64,000 nt of DNA. It comes from Escherichia coli O157:H7 (lineage in GTDB: Bacteria > Pseudomonadota > Gammaproteobacteria > Enterobacterales > Enterobacteriaceae). Below the pieces are notes generated by a model that was given only the letters and a program-made list of their open reading frames with translations, was not told the DNA's origin and ran no database searches. Positions 8,867 through 33,250 of the stretch are shown here, one piece after another. Location of the stretch: the NCBI RefSeq assembly GCF_013167455.1, contig NZ_CP038328.1. One strand, written 5' to 3'. Made by a program: the position numbers and the translations under genes. Every line of letters begins with the position of its first letter. Positions within the stretch are counted from its first letter, which is position 1.

Positions 8867-9960
8867 TAACGTCCCTCAAAATCTATACGCGGATCGACCA
8901 GCGTATAGCTGATATCACTGACAATATTCAGCAGCAGGCCAATCAGGGTGAAAATATACAAGGTACCAAACATTACAGGATAATCGCGCGAGACGGTCGC
9001 TTCGTAGCCCAGTAAGCCAAGACCATTGAGTGAAAACATCACCTCAATCAGCAGCGAGCCGGTAAAAAACATGCTGATAAACGTCGCCGGAAAACCGGCA
9101 ATCACCAGCAGCATGGCGTTGCGGAACACATGTTTCCAGAGAATATTTTTTTCACTTACCCCTTTCGCACGCGCGGTCACCACGTATTGCTTGCGTACTT
9201 CATCAAGGAATGAGTTTTTTGTCAGCATAGTCAGCGCCGCAAAGCCACCAATCACCGTCGCCAGCACCGGCAGCGTGATATGCCACAGATAATCGGTGAT
9301 TTTCTGATACCACGGCAGCGAATCAAAGTTAGCGGAAACCAGGCCGCGTAGAGGGAACAGGTCGAAATAGCTGCCGCCTGCGAAGAAGACAATCAGCAGG
9401 ATGGCAAACAAAAAGGCCGGAATGGCGTAGCCGATGATGATAAATGCGCTACTCCAGACGTCAAAGCGGCTCCCATTATAAACAGCTTTGCGAATGCCTA
9501 ACGGAATCGACACCAGATAGATAATCAGCGTGCTCCACAATCCGAGGGTGATGGAAACCGGCAGACTGTCTTTAATCAGCGTCAGCACCGAGGCGCTGCG
9601 AAACAGGCTATCGCCAAAATCAAAGCGGATGTAGTCCCAGAGCATTTTGAAGTAACGTTCGTGGATCGGCTTATCGAAACCGTAGCGATGAGTGATCTCG
9701 GCGATCACTTCTGGATCTAATCCGCGTCCGCCACGGTAATTACTGTCGCTGATATTACCGACGCCCGTTTGCGCATGGCTGGCGCGAACGCCTTCACCGC
9801 CTGCGCCGGGTAATACTCCGGCATTACCAAACTCAATGGCGGCGATGGCCTGGTCGACCGGACCGCCAGGCGCAATTTGCACGATGAAAAAGTTGATAGT
9901 GATAATCGCCCATAACGTTGGGATCACCAGCAACAGACGGCGAATCAGATAAGCGCCCAT
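8866..9960 (-). CDS. yejB: ABC transporter permease (YejABEF system)
   Basis: 364-aa multi-TM ORF; overlaps yejE start by 1 nt. Confidence 0.9.
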
Positions 9961-20644: not shown

Positions 20645-21775
20645 ATGTTCCAGTTATCCGTACAGGACATCCATCCGGGCGAAAAGGCCGGAGACAAAGA
20701 AGAGGCGATTCGCCAGGTCGCTGCGGCGCTGGTGCAGGCCGGTAATGTAGCAGAAGGCTACGTCAATGGCATGCTGGCGCGCGAACAGCAAACCTCAACG
20801 TTCCTCGGCAATGGTATTGCTATTCCACACGGCACTACCGACACCCGCGATCAGGTGCTGAAAACCGGCGTTCAGGTATTTCAGTTCCCGGAAGGCGTCA
20901 CCTGGGGTGACGGTCAGGTAGCGTACGTAGCGATCGGTATTGCTGCCAGCTCGGATGAGCATCTGGGCCTGCTACGCCAGCTGACCCACGTACTGAGCGA
21001 TGATTCCGTTGCTGAACAACTGAAGTCAGCAACAACAGCAGAAGAACTTCGCGCATTGCTGATGGGCGAAAAGCAGAGTGAGCAGCTGAAGCTCGACAAC
21101 GAAATGCTGACGCTGGATATCGTCGCCAGCGATCTGCTGACTCTTCAGGCGCTGAACGCTGCGCGTCTGAAAGAGGCGGGGGCAGTTGACGCCACTTTCG
21201 TCACCAAAGCCATCAATGAACAACCGCTGAACCTCGGACAGGGTATCTGGCTGAGCGATAGCGCCGAAGGCAATCTGCGTAGCGCAATTGCGGTAAGCCG
21301 TGCGGCAAATGCTTTTGATGTGGACGGCGAAACGGCAGCCATGCTGGTGAGTGTGGCGATGAATGACGATCAGCCCATTGCGGTTCTTAAGCGTCTCGCT
21401 GATTTGTTGCTCGACAATAAAGCTGACCGCTTGCTGAAAGCGGATGCGGCAACGTTGCTGGCGCTGCTGACCAGCGATGATGCGCCGACCGACGACGTGT
21501 TAAGCGCGGAGTTTGTGGTGCGCAATGAACACGGCCTGCATGCTCGTCCAGGTACCATGCTGGTCAACACCATTAAACAATTTAACAGTGATATTACCGT
21601 GACAAACCTTGATGGCACCGGCAAACCGGCAAACGGACGTAGTCTGATGAAAGTTGTGGCACTTGGCGTTAAGAAAGGTCATCGCCTACGCTTTACCGCC
21701 CAGGGTGCAGATGCTGAACAGGCGCTGAAAGCAATCGGCGACGCTATCGCTGCTGGTCTTGGGGAGGGCGCATAA
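20645..21775 (+). CDS. fruB: Fructose PTS multiphosphoryl transfer protein (IIA-M-FPr)
   Basis: 376-aa ORF with IIA-like N-terminus and HPr-like C-terminus ([10 protein letters not shown]). Confidence 0.93.
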
Positions 21776-22713
21776 TGAGCAGACGTGTTGCTACTATCAC
21801 CCTTAATCCGGCTTATGACCTTGTTGGTTTCTGCCCGGAAATTGAACGCGGCGAAGTGAACCTGGTGAAAACCACCGGTCTGCATGCGGCGGGTAAAGGC
21901 ATCAACGTGGCCAAAGTATTAAAAGACCTGGGAATTGATGTCACCGTTGGCGGCTTCCTCGGTAAAGACAATCAGGATGGTTTTCAGCAACTGTTCAGCG
22001 AGCTGGGCATTGCCAACCGTTTCCAGGTTGTACAGGGGCGCACCCGAATTAACGTTAAGCTGACGGAAAAAGACGGCGAAGTGACCGACTTCAACTTCTC
22101 GGGTTTTGAAGTCACCCCCGCCGACTGGGAACGCTTTGTGACTGATTCTCTGAGCTGGCTCGGTCAGTTCGATATGGTCTGTGTCAGCGGAAGCTTACCG
22201 TCAGGCGTCAGCCCGGAAGCGTTCACCGACTGGATGACTCGCCTGCGTAGTCAGTGCCCTTGCATTATCTTTGATAGTAGCCGTGAAGCGTTAGTAGCAG
22301 GTTTGAAAGCGGCACCGTGGCTGGTGAAACCTAACCGCCGCGAGCTGGAAATCTGGGCAGGCCGTAAACTGCCTGAAATGAAAGATGTGATTGAAGCTGC
22401 GCATGCGCTGCGTGAACAAGGTATTGCGCATGTCGTTATTTCACTGGGTGCCGAAGGCGCGCTTTGGGTTAATGCCTCCGGCGAATGGATCGCCAAACCA
22501 CCGTCAGTCGATGTCGTAAGCACCGTTGGCGCAGGGGATTCTATGGTTGGTGGCCTGATTTATGGCTTGCTAATGCGTGAATCCAGTGAACACACACTGC
22601 GTCTGGCGACTGCTGTTGCAGCCCTGGCGGTAAGTCAAAGCAATGTGGGTATTACCGATCGTCCGCAGTTGGCCGCAATGATGGCGCGCGTCGACTTACA
22701 ACCTTTTAACTGA
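21775..22713 (+). CDS. fruK: 1-phosphofructokinase
   Basis: 312-aa PfkB-family ORF; overlaps fruB stop by 1 nt. Confidence 0.93.
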   Translation: MSRRVATITLNPAYDLVGFCPEIERGEVNLVKTTGLHAAGKGINVAKVLKDLGIDVTVGGFLGKDNQDGFQQLFSELGIANRFQVVQGRTRINVKLTEKDGEVTDFNFSGFEVTPADWERFVTDSLSWLGQFDMVCVSGSLPSGVSPEAFTDWMTRLRSQCPCIIFDSSREALVAGLKAAPWLVKPNRRELEIWAGRKLPEMKDVIEAAHALREQGIAHVVISLGAEGALWVNASGEWIAKPPSVDVVSTVGAGDSMVGGLIYGLLMRESSEHTLRLATAVAALAVSQSNVGITDRPQLAAMMARVDLQPFN

Positions 22714-22729: not shown

Positions 22730-24421
22730 ATGAAAACGCTGCTGATTATTGACGCTAATCTCGGTCAGGCACGCGCCTATATGGCGAAGACCCTGCTGGG
22801 CGCGGCGGCGCGAAAAGCAAAACTGGAAATCATCGACAATCCGAACGACGCAGAAATGGCGATTGTTCTCGGTGATTCCATCCCGAATGACAGCGCGCTG
22901 AACGGTAAAAATGTCTGGCTGGGCGATATTTCCCGGGCAGTTGCGCACCCTGAGCTGTTCCTGAGTGAAGCCAAAGGCCATGCGAAACCTTACACTGCGC
23001 CGGTCGCTGCGACAGCACCGGTTGCCGCCAGCGGTCCGAAACGCGTAGTTGCGGTGACTGCTTGCCCGACTGGCGTAGCACACACCTTTATGGCGGCTGA
23101 AGCCATTGAAACCGAAGCGAAAAAACGTGGCTGGTGGGTGAAAGTTGAAACCCGTGGTTCTGTTGGCGCGGGTAATGCAATCACTCCCGAAGAAGTAGCC
23201 GCAGCGGATCTGGTGATTGTGGCGGCAGATATCGAAGTGGATCTGGCGAAATTTGCTGGTAAACCGATGTATCGCACCTCTACCGGTCTGGCGCTGAAGA
23301 AAACCGCGCAGGAACTGGATAAAGCGGTTGCTGAAGCAACGCCGTATGAACCGGCGGGCAAAGCTCAAACGGCGACCTCTGAAGGTAAGAACGAGAGTGC
23401 AGGCGCATACCGTCACTTGCTGACGGGCGTCTCTTACATGCTGCCGATGGTCGTTGCAGGTGGTCTGTGTATCGCGCTTTCTTTTGCTTTTGGTATCGAA
23501 GCGTTTAAAGAGCCGGGTACGTTGGCAGCGGCGCTGATGCAGATTGGTGGTGGTTCAGCCTTTGCGCTGATGGTGCCGGTACTGGCAGGTTATATTGCCT
23601 TCTCCATTGCCGATCGTCCGGGTCTCACGCCGGGTCTGATTGGCGGTATGCTGGCGGTCAGCACCGGTTCTGGCTTCATTGGCGGTATTATTGCGGGCTT
23701 CCTGGCTGGTTACATTGCGAAGTTAATCAGTACGCAACTGAAACTGCCACAGAGTATGGAGGCGCTGAAACCGATCCTGATCATTCCGCTAATTTCCAGT
23801 CTGGTGGTCGGTCTGGCGATGATCTACCTGATCGGTAAACCGGTTGCTGGCATTCTCGAAGGGTTGACTCACTGGCTGCAGACCATGGGGACTGCGAATG
23901 CGGTTCTGCTGGGGGCGATCCTCGGTGGCATGATGTGTACTGACATGGGCGGTCCGGTAAATAAAGCAGCGTACGCATTCGGTGTGGGTCTGCTGAGTAC
24001 TCAAACCTATGGCCCGATGGCGGCGATTATGGCGGCAGGTATGGTGCCACCGCTGGCAATGGGTCTGGCAACAATGGTGGCGCGTCGCAAATTTGACAAA
24101 GCGCAGCAGGAAGGTGGCAAAGCCGCTCTGGTTCTTGGTCTGTGCTTTATTTCGGAAGGTGCAATTCCTTTTGCTGCTCGTGATCCGATGCGTGTGCTGC
24201 CGTGTTGTATCGTTGGTGGGGCGCTGACTGGCGCAATCTCAATGGCGATTGGTGCGAAACTGATGGCACCGCACGGTGGTCTGTTTGTTCTGCTGATCCC
24301 TGGCGCTATTACGCCGGTACTGGGTTACCTGGTAGCAATTATTGCCGGTACGCTGGTGGCGGGTTTGGCCTATGCCTTCCTGAAACGTCCGGAAGTGGAC
24401 GCAGTAGCGAAAGCCGCGTAA
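22730..24421 (+). CDS. fruA: Fructose PTS permease IIB'BC
   Basis: 563-aa ORF with IIB domains and large integral membrane IIC domain. Confidence 0.93.
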   Translation: MKTLLIIDANLGQARAYMAKTLLGAAARKAKLEIIDNPNDAEMAIVLGDSIPNDSALNGKNVWLGDISRAVAHPELFLSEAKGHAKPYTAPVAATAPVAASGPKRVVAVTACPTGVAHTFMAAEAIETEAKKRGWWVKVETRGSVGAGNAITPEEVAAADLVIVAADIEVDLAKFAGKPMYRTSTGLALKKTAQELDKAVAEATPYEPAGKAQTATSEGKNESAGAYRHLLTGVSYMLPMVVAGGLCIALSFAFGIEAFKEPGTLAAALMQIGGGSAFALMVPVLAGYIAFSIADRPGLTPGLIGGMLAVSTGSGFIGGIIAGFLAGYIAKLISTQLKLPQSMEALKPILIIPLISSLVVGLAMIYLIGKPVAGILEGLTHWLQTMGTANAVLLGAILGGMMCTDMGGPVNKAAYAFGVGLLSTQTYGPMAAIMAAGMVPPLAMGLATMVARRKFDKAQQEGGKAALVLGLCFISEGAIPFAARDPMRVLPCCIVGGALTGAISMAIGAKLMAPHGGLFVLLIPGAITPVLGYLVAIIAGTLVAGLAYAFLKRPEVDAVAKAA

Positions 24422-24577
24422 TAAAAGGTGTGTTACAGGGCAGAAATTTACTGCCCCGTATCATTGGATGAGCGCAAAGAGAATGACCGGTTTGTGAATG
24501 TAATTTTATGAATTTAAATGGTTTTATCTTTCAGTAGAAACCTGAAACGTTCATCAAACACTAAGGTTATTTCCTCA

Positions 24578-24606
24578 AGGGCAGATTCTTTTCTGCCCTT
24601 TTTTAG
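24578..24606 (+). terminator. Rho-independent terminator downstream of fruA
   Basis: agggcag-attcttt-tctgccct followed by ttttt. Confidence 0.65.
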
Positions 24607-24844
24607 TGTTCATGTTCTGTGCATCCCGTCACAAATTCCTCGCTTTTGTAATTCAGGCATTTAATCGCATTTTGTGAGCCTGCTCAAATCTGCCCGCTTT
24701 GCCTCTCTGGCGGCAATTTACTTTACGTAAAACATGCATACTATGAGCACATGTTTAAATATGAACACATGTTTAAACCGTCTTTGCAGTATCTATATCC
24801 TTGTGGATTGACAGGGTTGGTAATTTTTTACCAGAGGACGTGCT

Positions 24845-25786
24845 ATGCGCGAAAAGGATTATGTCGTAATTATAGGCTCGGCGAATATTGATGTCGCCGG
24901 ATATTCACATGAATCATTAAATTATGCGGATTCAAATCCAGGTAAAATAAAATTTACGCCTGGTGGGGTAGGGCGCAATATTGCACAAAACCTGGCGTTG
25001 CTGGGTAATAAAGCCTGGCTACTGAGCGCCGTAGGCAGTGATTTTTATGGCCAATCGCTGCTAACGCAAACCAATCAATCTGGCGTTTATGTCGATAAAT
25101 GCCTGATTGTGCCGGGAGAAAATACGTCGAGCTATTTATCATTACTCGATAATACCGGTGAAATGCTGGTTGCTATAAATGACATGAATATTAGCAACGC
25201 TATTACAGCTGAATATCTCGCACAGCACCGTGAATTTATTCAGAGGGCAAAGGTCATTGTCGCGGACTGTAATATCAGTGAAGAGGCACTGGCATGGATT
25301 CTGGATAATGCTGCCAACGTACCCGTATTTGTCGATCCGGTTTCCGCGTGGAAATGCGTCAAAGTACGCGAGCGATTAAGTCAAATCCATACTCTCAAGC
25401 CAAACCGCCTTGAAGCGGAAACCCTGAGTGGGATTGCGCTGTCAGGGCGTGAAGATGTGGCAAAAGTTGCTGCCTGGTTCCATCAACATGGCCTGAACCG
25501 ACTGGTATTGAGCATGGGCGGCGACGGCGTTTATTACAGCGATATCAGCGGTGAAAGTGGCTGGTCTGCGCCGATCAAAACCAATGTTATTAATGTTACC
25601 GGAGCGGGCGATGCCATGATGGCGGGACTTGCTTCGTGTTGGGTAGACGGAATGCCGTTTGCCGAATCTGTTCGTTTCGCACAGGGATGTTCGTCAATGG
25701 CGCTCTCCTGTGAATACACCAATAACCCCGATTTATCGATTGCCAACGTTATATCGTTAGTGGAGAACGCAGAATGTCTGAATTAA
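24845..25786 (+). CDS. psuK: Pseudouridine kinase (PfkB family)
   Basis: 313-aa ORF MREKDYVVIIGSANIDVAGYS...; overlaps psuG by 13 bp. Confidence 0.9.
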   Translation: MREKDYVVIIGSANIDVAGYSHESLNYADSNPGKIKFTPGGVGRNIAQNLALLGNKAWLLSAVGSDFYGQSLLTQTNQSGVYVDKCLIVPGENTSSYLSLLDNTGEMLVAINDMNISNAITAEYLAQHREFIQRAKVIVADCNISEEALAWILDNAANVPVFVDPVSAWKCVKVRERLSQIHTLKPNRLEAETLSGIALSGREDVAKVAAWFHQHGLNRLVLSMGGDGVYYSDISGESGWSAPIKTNVINVTGAGDAMMAGLASCWVDGMPFAESVRFAQGCSSMALSCEYTNNPDLSIANVISLVENAECLN

Positions 25787-26712
25787 AAATTTCCCCTGAA
25801 TTATTACAAATTTCCCCGGAAGTGCAGGACGCTTTAAAAAACAAAAAACCGGTTGTGGCGCTGGAATCGACCATTATTTCTCACGGGATGCCGTTCCCAC
25901 AAAATGCCCAGACCGCAATTGAAGTAGAAGAAACTATTCGTAAACAGGGCGCAGTACCTGCCACTATCGCCATTATTGGCGGCGTGATGAAAGTGGGTTT
26001 AAGCAAAGAAGAAATTGAATTACTGGGTCGTGAAGGGCATAACGTGACTAAAGTTAGTCGTCGCGATTTACCTTTTGTCGTTGCCGCAGGAAAAAATGGT
26101 GCAACCACCGTGGCTTCAACGATGATTATTGCGGCGCTTGCCGGAATTAAAGTATTTGCCACCGGCGGAATTGGTGGTGTTCATCGAGGGGCGGAACATA
26201 CCTTCGATATTTCTGCCGATTTGCAAGAACTGGCAAATACTAATGTCACCGTTGTTTGTGCCGGGGCGAAATCTATTCTCGATTTAGGATTAACCACTGA
26301 GTATTTAGAAACCTTCGGTGTGCCGTTAATTGGCTATCAGACTAAAGCGCTACCTGCGTTTTTCTGCCGTACCAGCCCGTTTGACGTCAGCATTCGTCTC
26401 GACAGCGCCAGTGAAATTGCCCGTGCAATGGCGGTGAAATGGCAAAGCGGGCTGAACGGTGGCCTCGTGGTAGCGAACCCGATCCCGGAACAGTTTGCGA
26501 TGCCAGAACACACTATCAATGCGGTGATCGATCAGGCGGTAGCTGAAGCTGAAGCGCAGGGTGTTATTGGTAAAGAAAGTACGCCATTCCTGCTGGCGCG
26601 CGTTGCTGAGCTGACCGGCGGTGACAGCCTGAAATCCAACATCCAGCTTGTGTTCAACAACGCCATTCTGGCGAGCGAAATTGCCAAAGAATATCAGCGT
26701 CTCGCGGGTTAA
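25774..26712 (+). CDS. psuG: Pseudouridine-5'-phosphate glycosidase
   Basis: 312-aa ORF of the IndA/YeiN family. Confidence 0.9.
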   Translation: MSELKISPELLQISPEVQDALKNKKPVVALESTIISHGMPFPQNAQTAIEVEETIRKQGAVPATIAIIGGVMKVGLSKEEIELLGREGHNVTKVSRRDLPFVVAAGKNGATTVASTMIIAALAGIKVFATGGIGGVHRGAEHTFDISADLQELANTNVTVVCAGAKSILDLGLTTEYLETFGVPLIGYQTKALPAFFCRTSPFDVSIRLDSASEIARAMAVKWQSGLNGGLVVANPIPEQFAMPEHTINAVIDQAVAEAEAQGVIGKESTPFLLARVAELTGGDSLKSNIQLVFNNAILASEIAKEYQRLAG

Positions 26713-26805: not shown

Positions 26806-28056
26806 ATGGACATAATGAGAAGTGTTGTGGGGATGGTGGTGTTACTGGCAATAGCATTTCTGTTGTCAGTGAATAAAAAGAGCATCAGTTTGCGTACGGT
26901 TGCAGCCGCACTACTGCTGCAAATTGCTCTTGGTGGCATCATGCTCTATTTTCCGCCGGGAAAGTGGGCTGTAGAACAGGCGGCATTAGGCGTTCATAAA
27001 GTGATGTCTTACAGTGATGCTGGTAGCGCCTTCATTTTTGGTTCGCTGGTCGGGCCGAAAATGGATGTCCTCTTTGACGGTGCGGGTTTTATCTTCGCCT
27101 TTCGCGTACTTCCGGCGATTATCTTCGTCACTGCGCTCATTAGTCTGCTGTACTACATTGGCGTGATGGGGCTGCTGATTCGCATCCTTGGCAGCATTTT
27201 CCAGAAAGCCCTCAACATCAGCAAAATCGAATCTTTTGTCGCAGTCACCACTATTTTCCTCGGGCAAAATGAGATCCCGGCGATCGTTAAACCGTTTATC
27301 GATCGCATGAATCGAAACGAGTTGTTTACGGCTATTTGTAGCGGGATGGCGTCCATTGCTGGTTCGATGATGATTGGTTATGCCGGAATGGGCGTACCAA
27401 TTGACTACCTGTTGGCGGCATCGCTGATGGCGATCCCCGGCGGTATTTTGTTTGCACGTATTCTTAGTCCAGCAACCGAGCTTTCGCAGGTCACGTTTGA
27501 AAATCTGTCGTTCAGCGAAACGCCGCCAAAAAGCTTTATCGAAGCAGCGGCGAGCGGTGCGATGACCGGGCTGAAAATCGCCGCTGGTGTGGCGACGGTG
27601 GTAATGGCATTTGTGGCAATTATTGCGCTGATCAACGGCATTATCGGCGGAATTGGCGGCTGGTTTGGCTTCGCCAATGCTTCTCTGGAAAGTATTTTTG
27701 GCTATGTGCTGGCACCGCTGGCGTGGATCATGGGTGTGGACTGGAGTGATGCCAACCTTGCGGGTAGCCTGATTGGGCAGAAACTGGCGATTAACGAATT
27801 CGTCGCTTACCTGAGTTTCTCCCCATACCTGCAAACGGGCGGCACGCTGGAAGTGAAAACCATTGCGATTATCTCCTTTGCGCTTTGTGGTTTTGCTAAC
27901 TTTGGTTCTATCGGTGTTGTCGTTGGGGCATTTTCGGCTATTTCGCCAAAACGCGCACCGGAAATCGCTCAGCTTGGTTTACGGGCGCTGGCAGCAGCAA
28001 CGCTTTCCAACCTGATGAGCGCGACCATTGCCGGGTTCTTTATTGGTCTGGCGTAA
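26806..28056 (+). CDS. psuT: NupC-family nucleoside (pseudouridine) transporter
   Basis: 416-aa CNT-family ORF, close paralog of the ORF at 29996-31246. Confidence 0.9.
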   Translation: MDIMRSVVGMVVLLAIAFLLSVNKKSISLRTVAAALLLQIALGGIMLYFPPGKWAVEQAALGVHKVMSYSDAGSAFIFGSLVGPKMDVLFDGAGFIFAFRVLPAIIFVTALISLLYYIGVMGLLIRILGSIFQKALNISKIESFVAVTTIFLGQNEIPAIVKPFIDRMNRNELFTAICSGMASIAGSMMIGYAGMGVPIDYLLAASLMAIPGGILFARILSPATELSQVTFENLSFSETPPKSFIEAAASGAMTGLKIAAGVATVVMAFVAIIALINGIIGGIGGWFGFANASLESIFGYVLAPLAWIMGVDWSDANLAGSLIGQKLAINEFVAYLSFSPYLQTGGTLEVKTIAIISFALCGFANFGSIGVVVGAFSAISPKRAPEIAQLGLRALAAATLSNLMSATIAGFFIGLA

Positions 28057-28126: not shown

Positions 28127-28786
28127 TTACTGCATCATCCCGGAGAATTTATTCTCCGGGTCCATCTCCAGTGCCAGCCCTGACAACTGCTTTCTGTTTT
28201 TAATTAGATATCCTTTCTTGCTTTTAATTAATAAACCGTCGTGAATGAATTGCGCGAGAACATATAAAAGATGTCGATAAGAAACGCCTAAATACTCTGC
28301 CGCTTGCGTATGCTTTTCGTGATAAAGATCACCTTCTTGTGAGAGTAATATAAATGCTGCCAGGCGATTCACTAACGGAAATGATTGATTCTGAGTTAAA
28401 GAAACAATATTACGATAATTTTTATGACTTAAGGTGACGCAAAGTTTTCGTAAAAATAGGGTGTCGTTTAATAACAGCGGACGGTAATGTTTCATAGGGA
28501 GCGCAAGGCACCAACACTCTTCAATAGCCTGTACCGCACGCGGTTCATGGTCTTTATCGATTAACTCAATCTCACCAATAAAACAGGGGGCGGCAAAGAA
28601 ATCGATCAGCGACACGCGACCATTAGCTAGCGTGGCGTAAAGCCTGGCGCGGCCTCGCGTCAGGTAAAACAGCCAGGACGGCTGTTGCCCTTCCTGCACA
28701 ATGTAGTCACGCGCTAAAAAATGAAACAGCCGCGTATCGGCTGAAACATCCGTTAAAAAGCAATCCTTAAACGCGGATTCACTCAT
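28127..28786 (-). CDS. yeiL: CRP/FNR-family transcriptional regulator YeiL
   Basis: 219-aa product from [10 protein letters not shown]; cNMP-binding-like domain plus C-terminal HTH; 13-codon upstream extension in the track ORF. Confidence 0.85.
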
Positions 28787-28954
28787 CAATTGCTGCTTAA
28801 GATCATTATTGTGGATTTCTTTCACGATGTTTATCCGCTATGAGATTTCTCATATTTAGCATACGTACGCTGTTGTTAAGATTCAATCATCGGCCCGATC
28901 GAAATTTCTTTGCTGTAGAAAAAATAACGCAACTGGAAACAGAGGAAATAAACA

Positions 28955-29896
28955 ATGGAAAAGAGAAAAATTATTCTGGATTGTGATCCGGGTCATGATG
29001 ATGCTATTGCTATAATGATGGCGGCGAAACATCCGGCAATAGATTTATTAGGCATCACTATTGTAGCGGGTAATCAGACGCTTGATAAAACATTAATTAA
29101 TGGCCTGAATGTTTGCCAGAAACTGGAGATTAATGTTCCGGTTTATGCGGGGATGCCACAACCCATTATGCGGCAACAAATCGTTGCCGATAATATTCAC
29201 GGTGATACCGGACTGGATGGCCCGGTATTCGAGCCGCTGACCCGCCAGGCAGAAAGCACTCATGCGGTGAAATACATCATTGATACCCTGATGGCAAGCG
29301 ATGGCGATATCACTCTGGTGCCGGTTGGTCCGCTTTCAAATATCGCGGTGGCAATGCGTATGCAACCCGCGATCCTGCCCAAAATCCGTGAAATTGTGCT
29401 AATGGGCGGCGCTTACGGTACAGGCAACTTCACGCCATCTGCCGAGTTCAACATCTTTGCTGACCCGGAAGCCGCACGCGTGGTGTTCACCTCTGGCGTT
29501 CCATTAGTGATGATGGGCCTCGATCTCACCAACCAGACCGTTTGCACCCCGGACGTGATTGCACGAATGGAAAGGGCAGGCGGCCCTGCCGGAGAGCTGT
29601 TCAGCGACATCATGAACTTCACTCTCAAAACCCAGTTCGAAAACTACGGCCTGGCTGGCGGCCCGGTGCACGACGCCACCTGCATCGGTTATCTGATTAA
29701 CCCTGATGGCATTAAAACCCAGGAGATGTACGTCGAAGTGGACGTCAACAGTGGCCCTTGTTATGGGCGTACCGTCTGCGACGAGCTGGGCGTTCTTGGC
29801 AAGCCCGCTAATACCAAAGTCGGCATCACTATTGATAGCGACTGGTTCTGGGGCTTAGTCGAAGAGTGCGTGCGCGGCTACATCAAAACCCATTAA
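28955..29896 (+). CDS. rihB: Pyrimidine-specific ribonucleoside hydrolase
   Basis: 313-aa ORF with DCDPGHDD nucleoside hydrolase signature. Confidence 0.9.
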
Positions 29897-29995
29897 GTGT
29901 TGATAACAAGCCGGGCCGGTATCGCAAGATGCAGGCCTGGCTATTTCTGATGGGCAGAAAGCCGTCGCCCAATATGACATGAAGAGATAATCACT

Positions 29996-31246
29996 ATGGA
30001 TGTCATGAGAAGTGTTCTGGGAATGGTGGTATTGCTGACGATTGCGTTTTTACTGTCAGTAAACAAGAAGAAGATCAGCCTGCGTACCGTTGGCGCGGCG
30101 TTAGTGTTACAGGTCGTGATTGGCGGCATTATGCTTTGGTTACCGCCAGGGCGTTGGGTCGCTGAAAAAGTCGCTTTTGGTGTGCATAAAGTGATGGCGT
30201 ACAGCGACGCGGGTAGCGCATTTATCTTCGGTTCTCTGGTCGGACCGAAAATGGACACCTTATTTGATGGCGCAGGATTTATCTTTGGTTTCAGGGTATT
30301 ACCGGCAATTATCTTCGTCACTGCACTGGTGAGTATTCTCTACTACATCGGTGTGATGGGGATTTTAATTCGCATTCTCGGCGGTATATTCCAGAAAGCA
30401 TTAAATATCAGCAAGATTGAGTCATTCGTCGCGGTCACTACCATTTTCCTCGGGCAAAACGAAATTCCGGCGATTGTGAAGCCCTTTATCGATCGGCTGA
30501 ATCGCAATGAATTATTTACAGCGATTTGTAGCGGCATGGCCTCGATTGCTGGTTCGACAATGATTGGTTATGCCGCACTGGGCGTGCCTGTGGAATATTT
30601 GCTGGCGGCATCGTTAATGGCGATCCCCGGGGGGATCTTGTTTGCCCGCCTGCTAAGCCCGGCTACGGAATCTTCGCAGGTTTCTTTTAATAACCTCTCT
30701 TTCACCGAAACACCGCCAAAAAGCATTATTGAAGCCGCCGCGACAGGGGCAATGACCGGGCTGAAAATCGCCGCAGGTGTGGCGACAGTAGTGATGGCAT
30801 TCGTCGCCATCATTGCGTTAATTAACGGTATTATCGGCGGCGTTGGCGGCTGGTTTGGTTTTGAACATGCCTCGCTGGAGTCCATTGTAGGTTATCTGCT
30901 GGCCCCACTGGCGTGGGTAATGGGTGTTGACTGGAGTGATGCGAATCTTGCCGGGAGTTTGATTGGACAGAAACTGGCAATAAATGAATTTGTCGCTTAT
31001 CTCAATTTCTCACCCTATCTGCAAACGGCTGGCACTCTGGATGCTAAAACCGTGGCGATTATTTCCTTCGCGTTGTGCGGTTTCGCTAACTTTGGTTCTA
31101 TCGGGGTGGTGGTGGGGGCGTTTTCTGCGGTTGCGCCACACCGTGCGCCGGAAATCGCCCAGCTTGGTTTACGCGCGCTGGCGGCGGCGACACTTTCTAA
31201 CCTGATGAGTGCCACCATTGCCGGGTTCTTTATTGGTTTAGCGTAG
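29996..31246 (+). CDS. nupX: NupC-family nucleoside transporter
   Basis: 416-aa ORF, highly similar along its full length to the psuT product. Confidence 0.9.
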   Translation: MDVMRSVLGMVVLLTIAFLLSVNKKKISLRTVGAALVLQVVIGGIMLWLPPGRWVAEKVAFGVHKVMAYSDAGSAFIFGSLVGPKMDTLFDGAGFIFGFRVLPAIIFVTALVSILYYIGVMGILIRILGGIFQKALNISKIESFVAVTTIFLGQNEIPAIVKPFIDRLNRNELFTAICSGMASIAGSTMIGYAALGVPVEYLLAASLMAIPGGILFARLLSPATESSQVSFNNLSFTETPPKSIIEAAATGAMTGLKIAAGVATVVMAFVAIIALINGIIGGVGGWFGFEHASLESIVGYLLAPLAWVMGVDWSDANLAGSLIGQKLAINEFVAYLNFSPYLQTAGTLDAKTVAIISFALCGFANFGSIGVVVGAFSAVAPHRAPEIAQLGLRALAAATLSNLMSATIAGFFIGLA

Positions 31247-31301: not shown

Positions 31302-32390
31302 TTACACCATTGGCACTAATGAAAGCGCGTTATCGGCAGACAGGGTAGGGTTGTTTAAGCTGCCGCTGGCGCGTGAAATTGCCGCGCAGGCCATCGCAAA
31401 ACGGGCGCTGTCACGGAAATTGTTTCCTTCCAGAAAGCTATATACCAGGCCCGCCATAAAACCATCGTCAGCACCAAAACTGTCTACTGTCGTATGCGCT
31501 GGTGCGGTCAGCAAAAATTGTTCTCCATCCTTTTCGCTGCAATAAACTGACTCATCGGGCAAATAAACAAACAGTTGCTGAACACCTTGCTGATGCAACG
31601 CATTCACTGCAGCATTACGGTCAGCATCGCTGGTGATCGCCTGTCCCCATAAAATTTCCAGCTCCGGTAAAGTGGGTTTCAGGGTGTGAATATGCGCCAG
31701 CCAGTGTTTGATTTTGCCCGCTTTGAATTCTGAAACGGTATCGACAAACACCGGGATCTCACCAGCGAGGGTAAAGACCCATTCCAGCGCCTCGGCTGTC
31801 AGGTTGCAATCAGCCAGTACCACGCCCGCATGACGAAGTAAATCGCGCGACCCGTTCAATAATTGCGGCGATAACTGTTCCAGCAGATGGGTATCGTTAA
31901 TCGCCAGCACGGTTTCATCGTCTCGATTGGCAATTGCCAGATACGTCGATGTGCTTTGACCATGTAAACGAACGCAGCCGGAGACATTCACGCCGGCGCG
32001 GCGCGTTTCTTCCAGGAGCATTTCGCCATAAAAGTCATCGCCAATCACTGAAAGCAAATGGACGTCACGGCCTAACAGCGCCAGATTGTGGGCGATGTTG
32101 CGTCCCACGCCGCCCGCTGAGCAATGAATTGTACCGGGATGAGAAGCCGATTGCGGGTAACGGATATCCGCCATCCCGCGAATATCCATATTGATTGTCC
32201 CCACCACTACGCAGTATTCCTGCTCGGTGAGAATGTAACCTTTGCCTTTAATCCGGCCTTTGCGCATTAAATCCATAATATGCGCCGCAACGCGCGAACG
32301 GCTGATTTGCAGCATGTCCGCAATTTCGTTCTGCTGAATCAGCGGGTTACGCCGTAAAATTGCAAGGATCTCCTTTTCCCGGTTATTCAT
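31302..32390 (-). CDS. yeiI: HTH-domain-containing PfkB-family sugar/nucleoside kinase YeiI
   Basis: 362-aa ORF with N-terminal HTH and PfkB kinase domain paralogous to PsuK. Confidence 0.88.
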   Translation of the reverse strand: MNNREKEILAILRRNPLIQQNEIADMLQISRSRVAAHIMDLMRKGRIKGKGYILTEQEYCVVVGTINMDIRGMADIRYPQSASHPGTIHCSAGGVGRNIAHNLALLGRDVHLLSVIGDDFYGEMLLEETRRAGVNVSGCVRLHGQSTSTYLAIANRDDETVLAINDTHLLEQLSPQLLNGSRDLLRHAGVVLADCNLTAEALEWVFTLAGEIPVFVDTVSEFKAGKIKHWLAHIHTLKPTLPELEILWGQAITSDADRNAAVNALHQQGVQQLFVYLPDESVYCSEKDGEQFLLTAPAHTTVDSFGADDGFMAGLVYSFLEGNNFRDSARFAMACAAISRASGSLNNPTLSADNALSLVPMV

Positions 32391-32392
32391 CT

Positions 32393-33250
32393 TCAGGCTA
32401 CCGCTTTTTCAGTTTGTTGCGCTTTCAGCCAGGCGATCTCTTCTGCCCAGATATCCGGGTTGATGGTTTCGAGGATCAGCGGAATGCCGTCGAAACGGTC
32501 GTCCTGCATGATCCAGCGGAACGCATCATGACCGATATTGCCTTCACCGAGGCTATGATGGCGGTCAACGCGGCTGCCAAAGGTGCTTTTCGCATCGTTA
32601 AGGTGCATCCCGCGCAGATACTTAAAGCCGACAGTACGGGCAAAATCCGCGAATGTTTTCTCGCATTCGGCTGGAGTACGCAAATCATACCCGGCAGCGA
32701 AAGCATGGCAGGTATCAATGCAGACGCCGACGCGGGATTTATCTTCCACGCCGTCGATAATCGCCGCGAGATGTTCGAATTTAAACCCTAAGTTACTGCC
32801 CTGACCGGCGGTGTTTTCTATCACCGCTGTCACACCTTGAGTTTTATCCAGCGCAATGTTGATGGATTCGGCAATACGCGCAAGGCAATCCTCTTCTGAA
32901 ATCTGCATCAGATGGCTGCCAGGGTGGAAGTTGAGCAAAGAAAGCCCCAGCTGTTCGCAACGCTGCATTTCATCTATAAAGGCATCGCGCGATTTTTCCA
33001 GAGCTTCAGTGACCGGATGTCCGAGGTTAATCAGATAACTGTCGTGGGGAAGAATTTGCGCCGATGTGTAGTGATATTTTTCACAGGCGGCTTTGAATTC
33101 ATCGATGGTTTGCGTCGTGAGCGGTGCGGCACGCCACTGACGTTGGTTTTTGGTGAACAAGGCAAACGCGGTTGCGTCGATTTCGGCGGCGCGAATTGCG
33201 GCATTTGCCAGACCGCCAGCAGCACTAACGTGCGCTCCAATGTATTTCAT
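32393..33250 (-). CDS. nfo: Endonuclease IV (AP endonuclease)
   Basis: 285-aa [24 protein letters not shown]..., xylose-isomerase-like TIM barrel. Confidence 0.93.

Follow-up and report, generated by a model that had tools for sequence, protein, structure and literature searches.

Two conserved putative operators in the tandem repeat upstream of Escherichia coli psuK, and YeiI as the candidate regulator

Repressors of the ROK family, such as NagC, Mlc and the XylR protein of B. subtilis, join an N-terminal winged helix-turn-helix domain (wHTH) to a ligand sensor that resembles a sugar kinase; they are paralogues of active kinases and act on palindromic operators at catabolic promoters that use CRP. 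A related arrangement is seen in BirA and NadR, pathway enzymes that repress their own operon by means of an N-terminal wHTH. Here we describe a locus that recalls both, in a stretch of 64,000 nucleotides from Escherichia coli O157:H7 (contig NZ_CP038328.1 of assembly GCF_013167455.1; 'the window' refers to this whole stretch), where two 18-bp units stand in tandem upstream of psuK, the gene for pseudouridine kinase in the psuKGT operon. Our comparison of promoter sequences supports the view that the repeat is not a neutral duplication but a pair of conserved putative protein-binding sites on the psuK promoter. With moderate confidence, we take the pair for a twin operator at which YeiI, a protein with a wHTH and a PfkB kinase-like domain, would repress psuKGT until pseudouridine appears, with CRP as the activator.

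YeiI shares with the ROK repressors the fusion of a wHTH to a kinase-like sensor, but this sensor has the PfkB ribokinase fold (Pfam PF00294) rather than the ROK/ASKHA fold, and in many genera the fusion of HTH and PfkB domains looks like the only, catalytically intact kinase of the pathway. The single-copy HTH-PsuK proteins of Yersinia, Pasteurella and Shewanella would act in the manner of BirA and NadR, which differ from them in enzyme fold and ligand; in E. coli the two roles appear to be split between PsuK and YeiI. A further difference to BirA is that the latter uses its reaction product as corepressor, whereas a catabolic operon is instead expected to be induced by its substrate. With respect to the DNA sites, the ARG boxes of ArgR are likewise two adjacent, imperfect 18-bp dyad units that lie over a promoter and read as a direct repeat. 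They are, however, 3 bp apart (a 21-bp period) and follow TGAAT-N4-ATTCA, whereas the psuK sites have a period of 18-19 bp and the half-site RAACA and imply no hexameric protein of the ArgR type. Finally, the HTH of the YeiI family has its best structure match in LrpA and belongs to Pfam HTH_24, a likeness to the Lrp/AsnC proteins that does not extend to their RAM/ACT effector domain, in place of which YeiI carries the PfkB kinase domain at its C-terminus. Although the mechanism proposed for YeiI is similar to that of BirA or the ROK repressors, YeiI is a member of neither family.

The first repeat unit, ATGAGCACATGTTTAAAT (24743-24760), is directly adjoined by the second, ATGAACACATGTTTAAAC (24761-24778), and 16 of the 18 positions are identical. 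Tandem Repeats Finder returned a period of 18, 2.0 copies, 94% matches and a score of 65, one of just three arrays in the window that score at least 50. A degenerate 18-mer with up to three mismatches occurs three times in the window against an expectation of 0.20, and none out of 100 shuffles reached three. The original prediction of a near-perfect 18-bp tandem repeat at this place was thus borne out, and its estimate of about 65 bp to the start of psuK compares with the 66 nt that we measured between the end of the repeat and the ATG. The spacer between fruA and psuK in the window is 100% identical to that of several O157:H7 chromosomes. The repeat and the genes that the analysis draws on are the following:

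24743-24778, plus strand: tandem repeat of two 18-bp units, within the 423-bp fruA-psuK spacer (24422-24844)
21775-22713, plus strand: fruK
22730-24421, plus strand: fruA
24845-25786, plus strand: psuK, pseudouridine kinase of the PfkB family without an HTH; ATG at 24845
25774-26712, plus strand: psuG, pseudouridine-5'-phosphate glycosidase
26806-28056, plus strand: psuT, nucleoside transporter
28127-28825, minus strand: yeiL, CRP/FNR family, 70 bp beyond psuT
31302-32390, minus strand: yeiI, wHTH (aa 1-48) and PfkB domain, the proposed operator-binding regulator

Each unit contains a 12-bp dyad, RAACA-N2-TGTTY, a consensus that is valid in 13 loci. The two dyads, designated O1 and O2, are placed as follows among the elements of the putative promoter:

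24673-24688, unstranded: CRP-like box TGTGA-GCCTGC-TCAAA, conserved in 11 of 11 Enterobacteriaceae promoters
24717-24722, plus strand: inferred -35 hexamer TTTACT, conserved in register, with a published single-nucleotide polymorphism (SNP) at 24719
24730-24741, unstranded: possible third, half-only site AAACA in the conserved block AAAACAyGC between -35 and -10; only its left half matches the dyad
24739-24744, plus strand: inferred -10 hexamer TACTAT, separated from the -35 by a 16-nt spacer and found in register as TACTAT, TATTAT or TATCAT
24745-24756, unstranded: operator O1, GAGCA-CA-TGTTT, which starts directly after the -10 and spans the inferred transcription start
24763-24774, unstranded: operator O2, GAACA-CA-TGTTT, 18 bp downstream of O1 from centre to centre, at about +12 to +23
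24819-24832, plus strand: small hairpin GGTAA-TTTT-TTACC in the inferred 5' untranslated region (UTR), just before the Shine-Dalgarno sequence

The inferred -35 and -10 hexamers of this putative weak sigma-70 promoter match 8 of 12 consensus positions, a score under the threshold of the promoter scan, and such a weak match is typical of an activator-dependent promoter. Transcription would be expected to start near 24751, and O1 and O2 would then lie in the position of a repressor site. The CRP box, TGTGAGCCTGCTCAAA, matches nine of the ten positions of TGTGA-N6-TCACA and is centred at 24680.5, about 70.5 bp upstream of this start; in class I CRP-dependent promoters the box would be centred near -61.5, -71.5 or a similar position. 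Dyads of the TGTGA-N6 type were also present in three of six distant promoters. CRP had been listed among the candidate binders of the repeat itself, an assignment that does not fit, CRP having this separate and conserved box further upstream. A study of evolution in long-term stationary phase lists the SNP psuKp, 'psuK/fruA intergenic (-126/+297), A->C', as one allele in three of four populations (PMC7858067). Position -126 maps to 24719 in the window, the third base of the inferred -35, where the exchange of T for G on the psuK strand converts TTTACT to TTGACT. The published exchange improves the inferred -35 and fits the promoter assignment.

A scan of species-representative genomes with PsuK yielded loci from Escherichia spp., E. 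albertii, Citrobacter and Buttiauxella, and an Enterobacter locus was added by a later look-up. The resulting 11 psuK promoters of Enterobacteriaceae, from the four genera Escherichia, Citrobacter, Buttiauxella and Enterobacter, align from the CRP-like box to unit 2 without insertions or deletions. They share one order of elements, namely TGTGA-N6-TCAWA, a variable stretch, TTTACT, a spacer with the block AAAACAyGC that is kept in all 11, TACTAT, unit 1, six variable bases and unit 2. Within the dyads the RAACA and TGTTY half-sites keep their sequence, and no compensatory changes occur in them. The centre dinucleotide varies (CA, TG, CG or GA), as do the six nucleotides between O1 and O2 (AAATAT, AAATCT, GATAGT, GTTTGC and others), at fixed spacing throughout; the right half of O2 reads TGCTC in most genera. 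Fixed half-sites with free spacers are the usual signature of protein-binding sites. The palindromes ACATGT and TTTAAA that had been pointed out earlier do occur in each unit, but neither is kept in other species, and it is the larger dyad that persists. The suggestion that the repeat marks regulator sites gains from this footprinting and from the twin sites of distant genera described below, but a pair of palindromic operators is a better description of the units than a direct repeat. In the comparative check of the spacer, the sites were present in all orthologous promoters examined, which is not what a neutral local duplication would lead one to expect.

Within E. coli the 36-bp repeat was invariant in nine diverse strains, including the two differences between the units; the spacers of these strains diverge from that of the window by as much as about 5%. 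Among 5426 complete genomes, a 66-nt stretch around the repeat, here termed the type A allele, was found in 4219 (about 78%), in 3279 of them at 99% identity or more, and the two-unit region was covered at 95% identity or more in 4214 of the 4219. The genomes without the type A stretch still have the operon, psuG being present in 5403. A second promoter allele, type B, occurs in 1046 genomes (for example strain 1437, locus L031:6591-7045) and resembles that of E. albertii; its units, ATGAACATGTGTTTAAAT and CTGAACACATGCTCTAAT, lie at the same place and with the same 18-bp period, and only 12 of 18 positions are alike. Because of this low similarity of the type B units, we regard the near-perfect direct repeat as a trait of a single Escherichia lineage, and it is plausible that the unit identity in type A arose by local homogenization of the two units. 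We also noted that the type B promoter goes with psuG alleles that are only 90-95% identical (1327 genomes), which suggests that the split between the two types reflects an old recombination or introgression across the psu locus. A further observation concerns the genome of UC4316, where exactly one 18-bp unit is deleted and a single chimeric operator is left (L032:1766-1908 compared with 24690-24850 in the window); the deletion could stem from recombination between the units or from an assembly error. UC4316 is a Shiga toxin-producing E. coli mutant engineered with lambda-Red (PMC13340028), and a text search of the corresponding paper gave no mention of psuK or pseudouridine.

The sites reach well beyond the promoters that can be aligned. 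When 203 kb of loci were searched for pairs of RAACA-N2-TGTTY dyads spaced by 17-20 bp, 14 matches were obtained, compared with 3.0 in shuffled sequences (maximum 8), and a match lay at the 5' end of the psuK or HTH-PfkB gene in 10 of 11 loci, or 12 of 13 with two further loci included. Twin sites recur in the unalignable promoters of Yersinia, Serratia, Pasteurella, Shewanella, Aliivibrio and Dongshaea; their spacing is 18 bp in Enterobacterales and Pasteurella and 19 bp in Shewanella, Aliivibrio, Dongshaea and locus L033. An enumeration that presupposes no motif, covering all 5-Nx-5 dyads (1024 half-sites, spacers of 0-8) in six distant, unalignable promoters, retrieved AAACA-N2-TGTTT as the sole dyad present in at least four of them; it was found in five of the six, a number that none of 500 dinucleotide-preserving shuffles attained. 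The annotated ATG of the HTH-kinase overlaps with the twin site in Yersinia and Serratia, and these proteins are nine residues longer than the others, for which reasons the annotated starts are probably wrong. By chance alone the 203-kb set should contain about three twin matches, and the window about 2.5 single dyads. A single-dyad copy at 9124 and twin-like matches at 9124, 20463 and 34694 fit this expectation, those at 9124 and 34694 lying within open reading frames. A Cra-like box, CTGAAACGTTCA, at 24541-24552 is probably a chance occurrence as well and is polymorphic within E. coli, reading TTCAAACG in K-12. We additionally observed a longer dyad farther upstream, some 245-300 bp from the HTH-kinase gene, in Yersinia and Serratia (L023:5750-5772 and L024:5750-5772) and in Xenorhabdus (L027, near 5700), which is perfect in Yersinia, AACCAAACA-CT-TGTTTGGTT, and imperfect in the other two. 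These distal dyads may be operators that allow looping.

YeiI is the preferred candidate for the protein that occupies these sites because the gene for a wHTH-PfkB protein tracks the motif across loci. In Citrobacter, Buttiauxella and Enterobacter the convergent gene directly after psuT, corresponding to yeiI, encodes a protein of 362-364 residues with a wHTH and a PfkB domain, and in locus L034 a wHTH-PfkB gene is likewise the convergent neighbor of psuT. In Escherichia, yeiL, rihB and nupX (28127-31246) lie between psuT and yeiI, the latter being 3.2 kb away in E. coli; since psuT and yeiI are direct neighbors in the other three genera, this block looks like an insertion. As a side observation, only a partial 'hypothetical protein' fragment is annotated in strain 1437 where the window has nupX. 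Two-domain HTH-kinase homologues are common in Gammaproteobacteria. In eight distant loci (Yersinia, Serratia, Xenorhabdus, Pasteurella, Shewanella, Aliivibrio, Dongshaea and one metagenomic locus) such a gene is the first of an operon with psuG and often psuT, and there occupies the position of psuK. The wHTH fused to PfkB is the only transcription-factor domain consistently linked to these psu operons, and a second shared regulator gene was not found in the flanks of the psu loci examined.

The DNA-binding domain itself is conserved from YeiI to the Shewanella protein, with 20 of 58 positions invariant across nine genera, including the motif SRSxVAxHIMNL (SRS-VA--IM) in the likely recognition helix, and this would be consistent with the conserved half-site. 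It matches Pfam HTH_24 with an E-value of 1.2e-10, and a profile compared with solved structures gave Pyrococcus LrpA as the best hit (1i1g, E 1.6e-6) and the N-terminal domain of BirA as a weak one (E about 5e-3); the structure search returned no solved structure that contains the combination of HTH and PfkB. Over the kinase domain YeiI and PsuK are 39% identical. In the E. coli pseudouridine kinase, S30, N143 and K170 are determinants of pseudouridine affinity and fidelity (PMC9061257). These residues of PsuK correspond to S83, N196 and K223 of YeiI and are invariant in every aligned sequence. The catalytic PfkB motif has its intact form, GAGD, in PsuK and in every single-copy HTH-kinase and reads GADD in the YeiI clade, while locus L034 has an HTH paralogue with GIDN and a separate, HTH-less psuK that carries the twin site. 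The kinase domain of the Yersinia protein scores higher with the NCBIfam model for PsuK than with that for YeiI.

In the mechanism that we propose, each dyad would be occupied by a YeiI dimer that obstructs RNA polymerase or its escape from the promoter. Once pseudouridine or its 5'-phosphate filled the kinase-like pocket, YeiI would be released, and cyclic AMP-CRP would then drive psuKGT. In Yersinia, Serratia, Pasteurella, Shewanella and others the single HTH-PsuK fusion would be enzyme and autoregulator in one, and in Enterobacteriaceae a duplication would have split these roles into PsuK, an enzyme that lost the HTH, and YeiI, a regulator that kept HTH and ligand pocket while its catalytic site drifted. 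We give about even weight to the more general proposal that the YeiI family are one-component regulators with a PfkB-fold pseudouridine kinase as their sensor, descended from a bifunctional kinase-repressor that autoregulated psuKGT through the twin operator and was duplicated in Enterobacteriaceae to give the enzyme PsuK and the catalytically altered sensor YeiI.

Several points weigh against a YeiI operator. YeiI would be assigned to the sites by association, that is, through gene linkage, and no binding, expression or start-site data for the psuK promoter were found in the literature searched. The motif scans covered the 64-kb window and the fetched loci, and other E. coli targets or competing binders lie beyond that scope. 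With regard to the sites, the left half of O1 is weakened in the type A allele (GAGCA), and the 18-bp spacing sets two dimers on different faces of the helix, so that cooperative binding is not obvious. In Xenorhabdus no twin site reaches the scan threshold, and a single dyad lies some 300 bp ahead of the annotated start. E. coli YeiI retains the catalytic aspartate (GADD) and for this reason may still be a kinase. As to the promoter, the position of the -35 SNP is also listed among the differences between the parental strains (PMC7858067), and selection on it is not proven because the position already differs there.

It is possible, if unlikely, that the operator pair is real but serves another, unlinked transcription factor that recognizes dyads similar to AAACA-N2-TGTTT. 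AAAC-N4-GTTT dyads, the PsrA-type sites, are used by other regulators in some Gammaproteobacteria, and the assignment to YeiI comes from gene linkage only. Nevertheless, the twin architecture follows psu operons across at least three orders, and the wHTH-PfkB gene is the only regulator-like gene that is always present.

YeiL had been named as a candidate, and its gene is indeed the nearest regulator gene in E. coli; moreover, a 16-bp dyad arises where the two units meet, TGTTT-N6-GAACA (24752-24767), with 6 of 8 pairs and the 5-N6-5 geometry of CRP-like sites, to which a protein of the CRP/FNR family might bind. We nonetheless consider this improbable. In Citrobacter, Buttiauxella and Enterobacter yeiL is not at the locus, nor is it in the distant loci that carry the sites, and the 19-bp spacing found in Shewanella, Aliivibrio, Dongshaea and L033 turns the junction dyad into an N7 form while each unit stays intact. 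Conservation extends to the outer half-sites, to the left of O1 and to the right of O2, and a single site at the junction does not account for this.

Still less probable is a role of the repeat as RNA, within the 5' UTR of psuK, where it might for instance pair with the sRNA RprA or fold into a small hairpin. Transcription is predicted to include most of the repeat, RIL-seq and TRIC-seq both list psuK as a partner of RprA (bioRxiv 10.1101/2025.09.11.675593), and each unit contains CAUGUUUA, complementary to nt 28-35 of RprA. The half-sites, however, show no compensatory change, a unit cannot fold on itself, since this would take a 5-bp stem closed by a loop of 2 nt, the full-length RprA duplex energy is no better than that of shuffled targets, and in both windowed and run-based searches the best predicted pairing lies near the ribosome-binding site (24814-24850) rather than in the repeat. 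There, nt 30-75 of RprA would pair across the small hairpin, the Shine-Dalgarno sequence and the start codon, with a raw predicted energy of about -22.8 kcal/mol for a 30-nt window. The hairpin before the ribosome-binding site (GGYAA-loop-TTRCC) is itself kept in four genera, and its predicted consensus fold contains one compensatory pair, U-A for C-G, among nine sequences; covariation support is weak. A permissive Rfam search of 24300-24950 gave only sub-threshold chance matches.

Finally, a neutral tandem duplication without function can hardly be credited, for although the unit identity of 16/18, which is confined to the Escherichia type A allele and drops to about 12/18 in other alleles and genera, and the loss of exactly one unit in UC4316 speak in its favor, the two-site layout is older than the genus and stays in register across four genera, the twin site recurs in unalignable promoters, and the copy number is two in essentially all 4219 type A genomes.

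Other known regulators were considered and rejected. Promoters for nucleoside genes that respond to CytR and CRP have TGCAA/TTGCA octamer repeats flanked by tandem CRP sites; the 11 aligned promoters contain no conserved TGCAA-type repeat and a single conserved CRP box, and CytR, another of the candidates first put forward, was discarded along with YeiL. A junction dyad of the DeoR/GlpR kind, TGTT-N8-AACA, is at odds with the shift to a 19-bp spacing in four genera, and direct repeats of the PhoP or ArcA kind (TGTTTA) with the spacing of 18 bp instead of 11 and with the TGCTC right half of O2 in most genera. The NsrR-like ATGCAT is not conserved outside Escherichia in the 11 promoters. As to SOS control, the E. 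coli LexA box CTGT-N8-ACAG is absent from 24700-24844, and the units resemble the Gram-positive GAAC-N4-GTTC in form only. TdcE, DmsA, GlpA, MalK, TnaA and OmpW are products of catabolic and anaerobic genes that depend on CRP/FNR. SOS control had come into view because PsuG and PsuK fall strongly in recA mutants under ciprofloxacin, and these six proteins fall together with PsuG (PMC11039860). Because the proteins that fall together with PsuG are CRP/FNR-dependent, this behavior fits the CRP box and not LexA.

Some further features of the locus were recorded in passing. The start codon of yeiI follows the stop codon of nfo after 2 nt (32390-32393), and with so short a distance yeiI may be co-transcribed with nfo; a genomic study by systematic evolution of ligands by exponential enrichment (SELEX) places a constitutive sigma-70 site between the two genes (PMC3946193). 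At the overlap of psuK and psuG there is a 21-bp tandem repeat of 1.9 copies (25782-25821) that encodes the peptide ISPELLQ/ISPEVQ at the N-terminus of PsuG. Two related GGGCAGA...TCTGCCC hairpins are located 3' of fruA, at 24436-24458 and 24577-24606, and since a run of T follows only the second, the fruBKA terminator seems to lie about 185 nt past the stop codon and would thus be preceded by a long conserved 3' region. In this region some RefSeq records annotate a hypothetical protein of 48 aa on the opposite strand.

YeiI is called 'uncharacterized' or an uncharacterized sugar kinase in papers from 2022 and 2025 and figures in a 2018 list of hypothetical transcription factors. The papers searched contained no data for YeiI from chromatin immunoprecipitation, SELEX or electrophoretic mobility shift assays. 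A published regulator of psuK, a function for YeiI or a description of regulators with the HTH-PfkB combination was not found either, in a search whose scope was without most subscription journals and curated databases.

Pseudouridine is the most abundant modified nucleoside in RNA, and to our knowledge psuKGT is the only route by which E. coli recycles it. The -35 SNP ties the psuK promoter to nutrient scavenging in long-term stationary phase. A repressor-operator pair that responds to pseudouridine could be used as a biosensor for strains engineered to make pseudouridine for mRNA manufacture (PMC10552469, PMC12500856, PMC13090712). If the reading of the repeat as a YeiI operator is true, it would give a function to a y-gene, together with a defined operator motif and a promoter map. 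Moreover, it would document how an enzyme became a transcription factor by duplication, in parallel to the ROK repressors but on the PfkB fold, and it would mean that E. coli has a dedicated transcriptional sensor for a modified nucleoside from RNA turnover.

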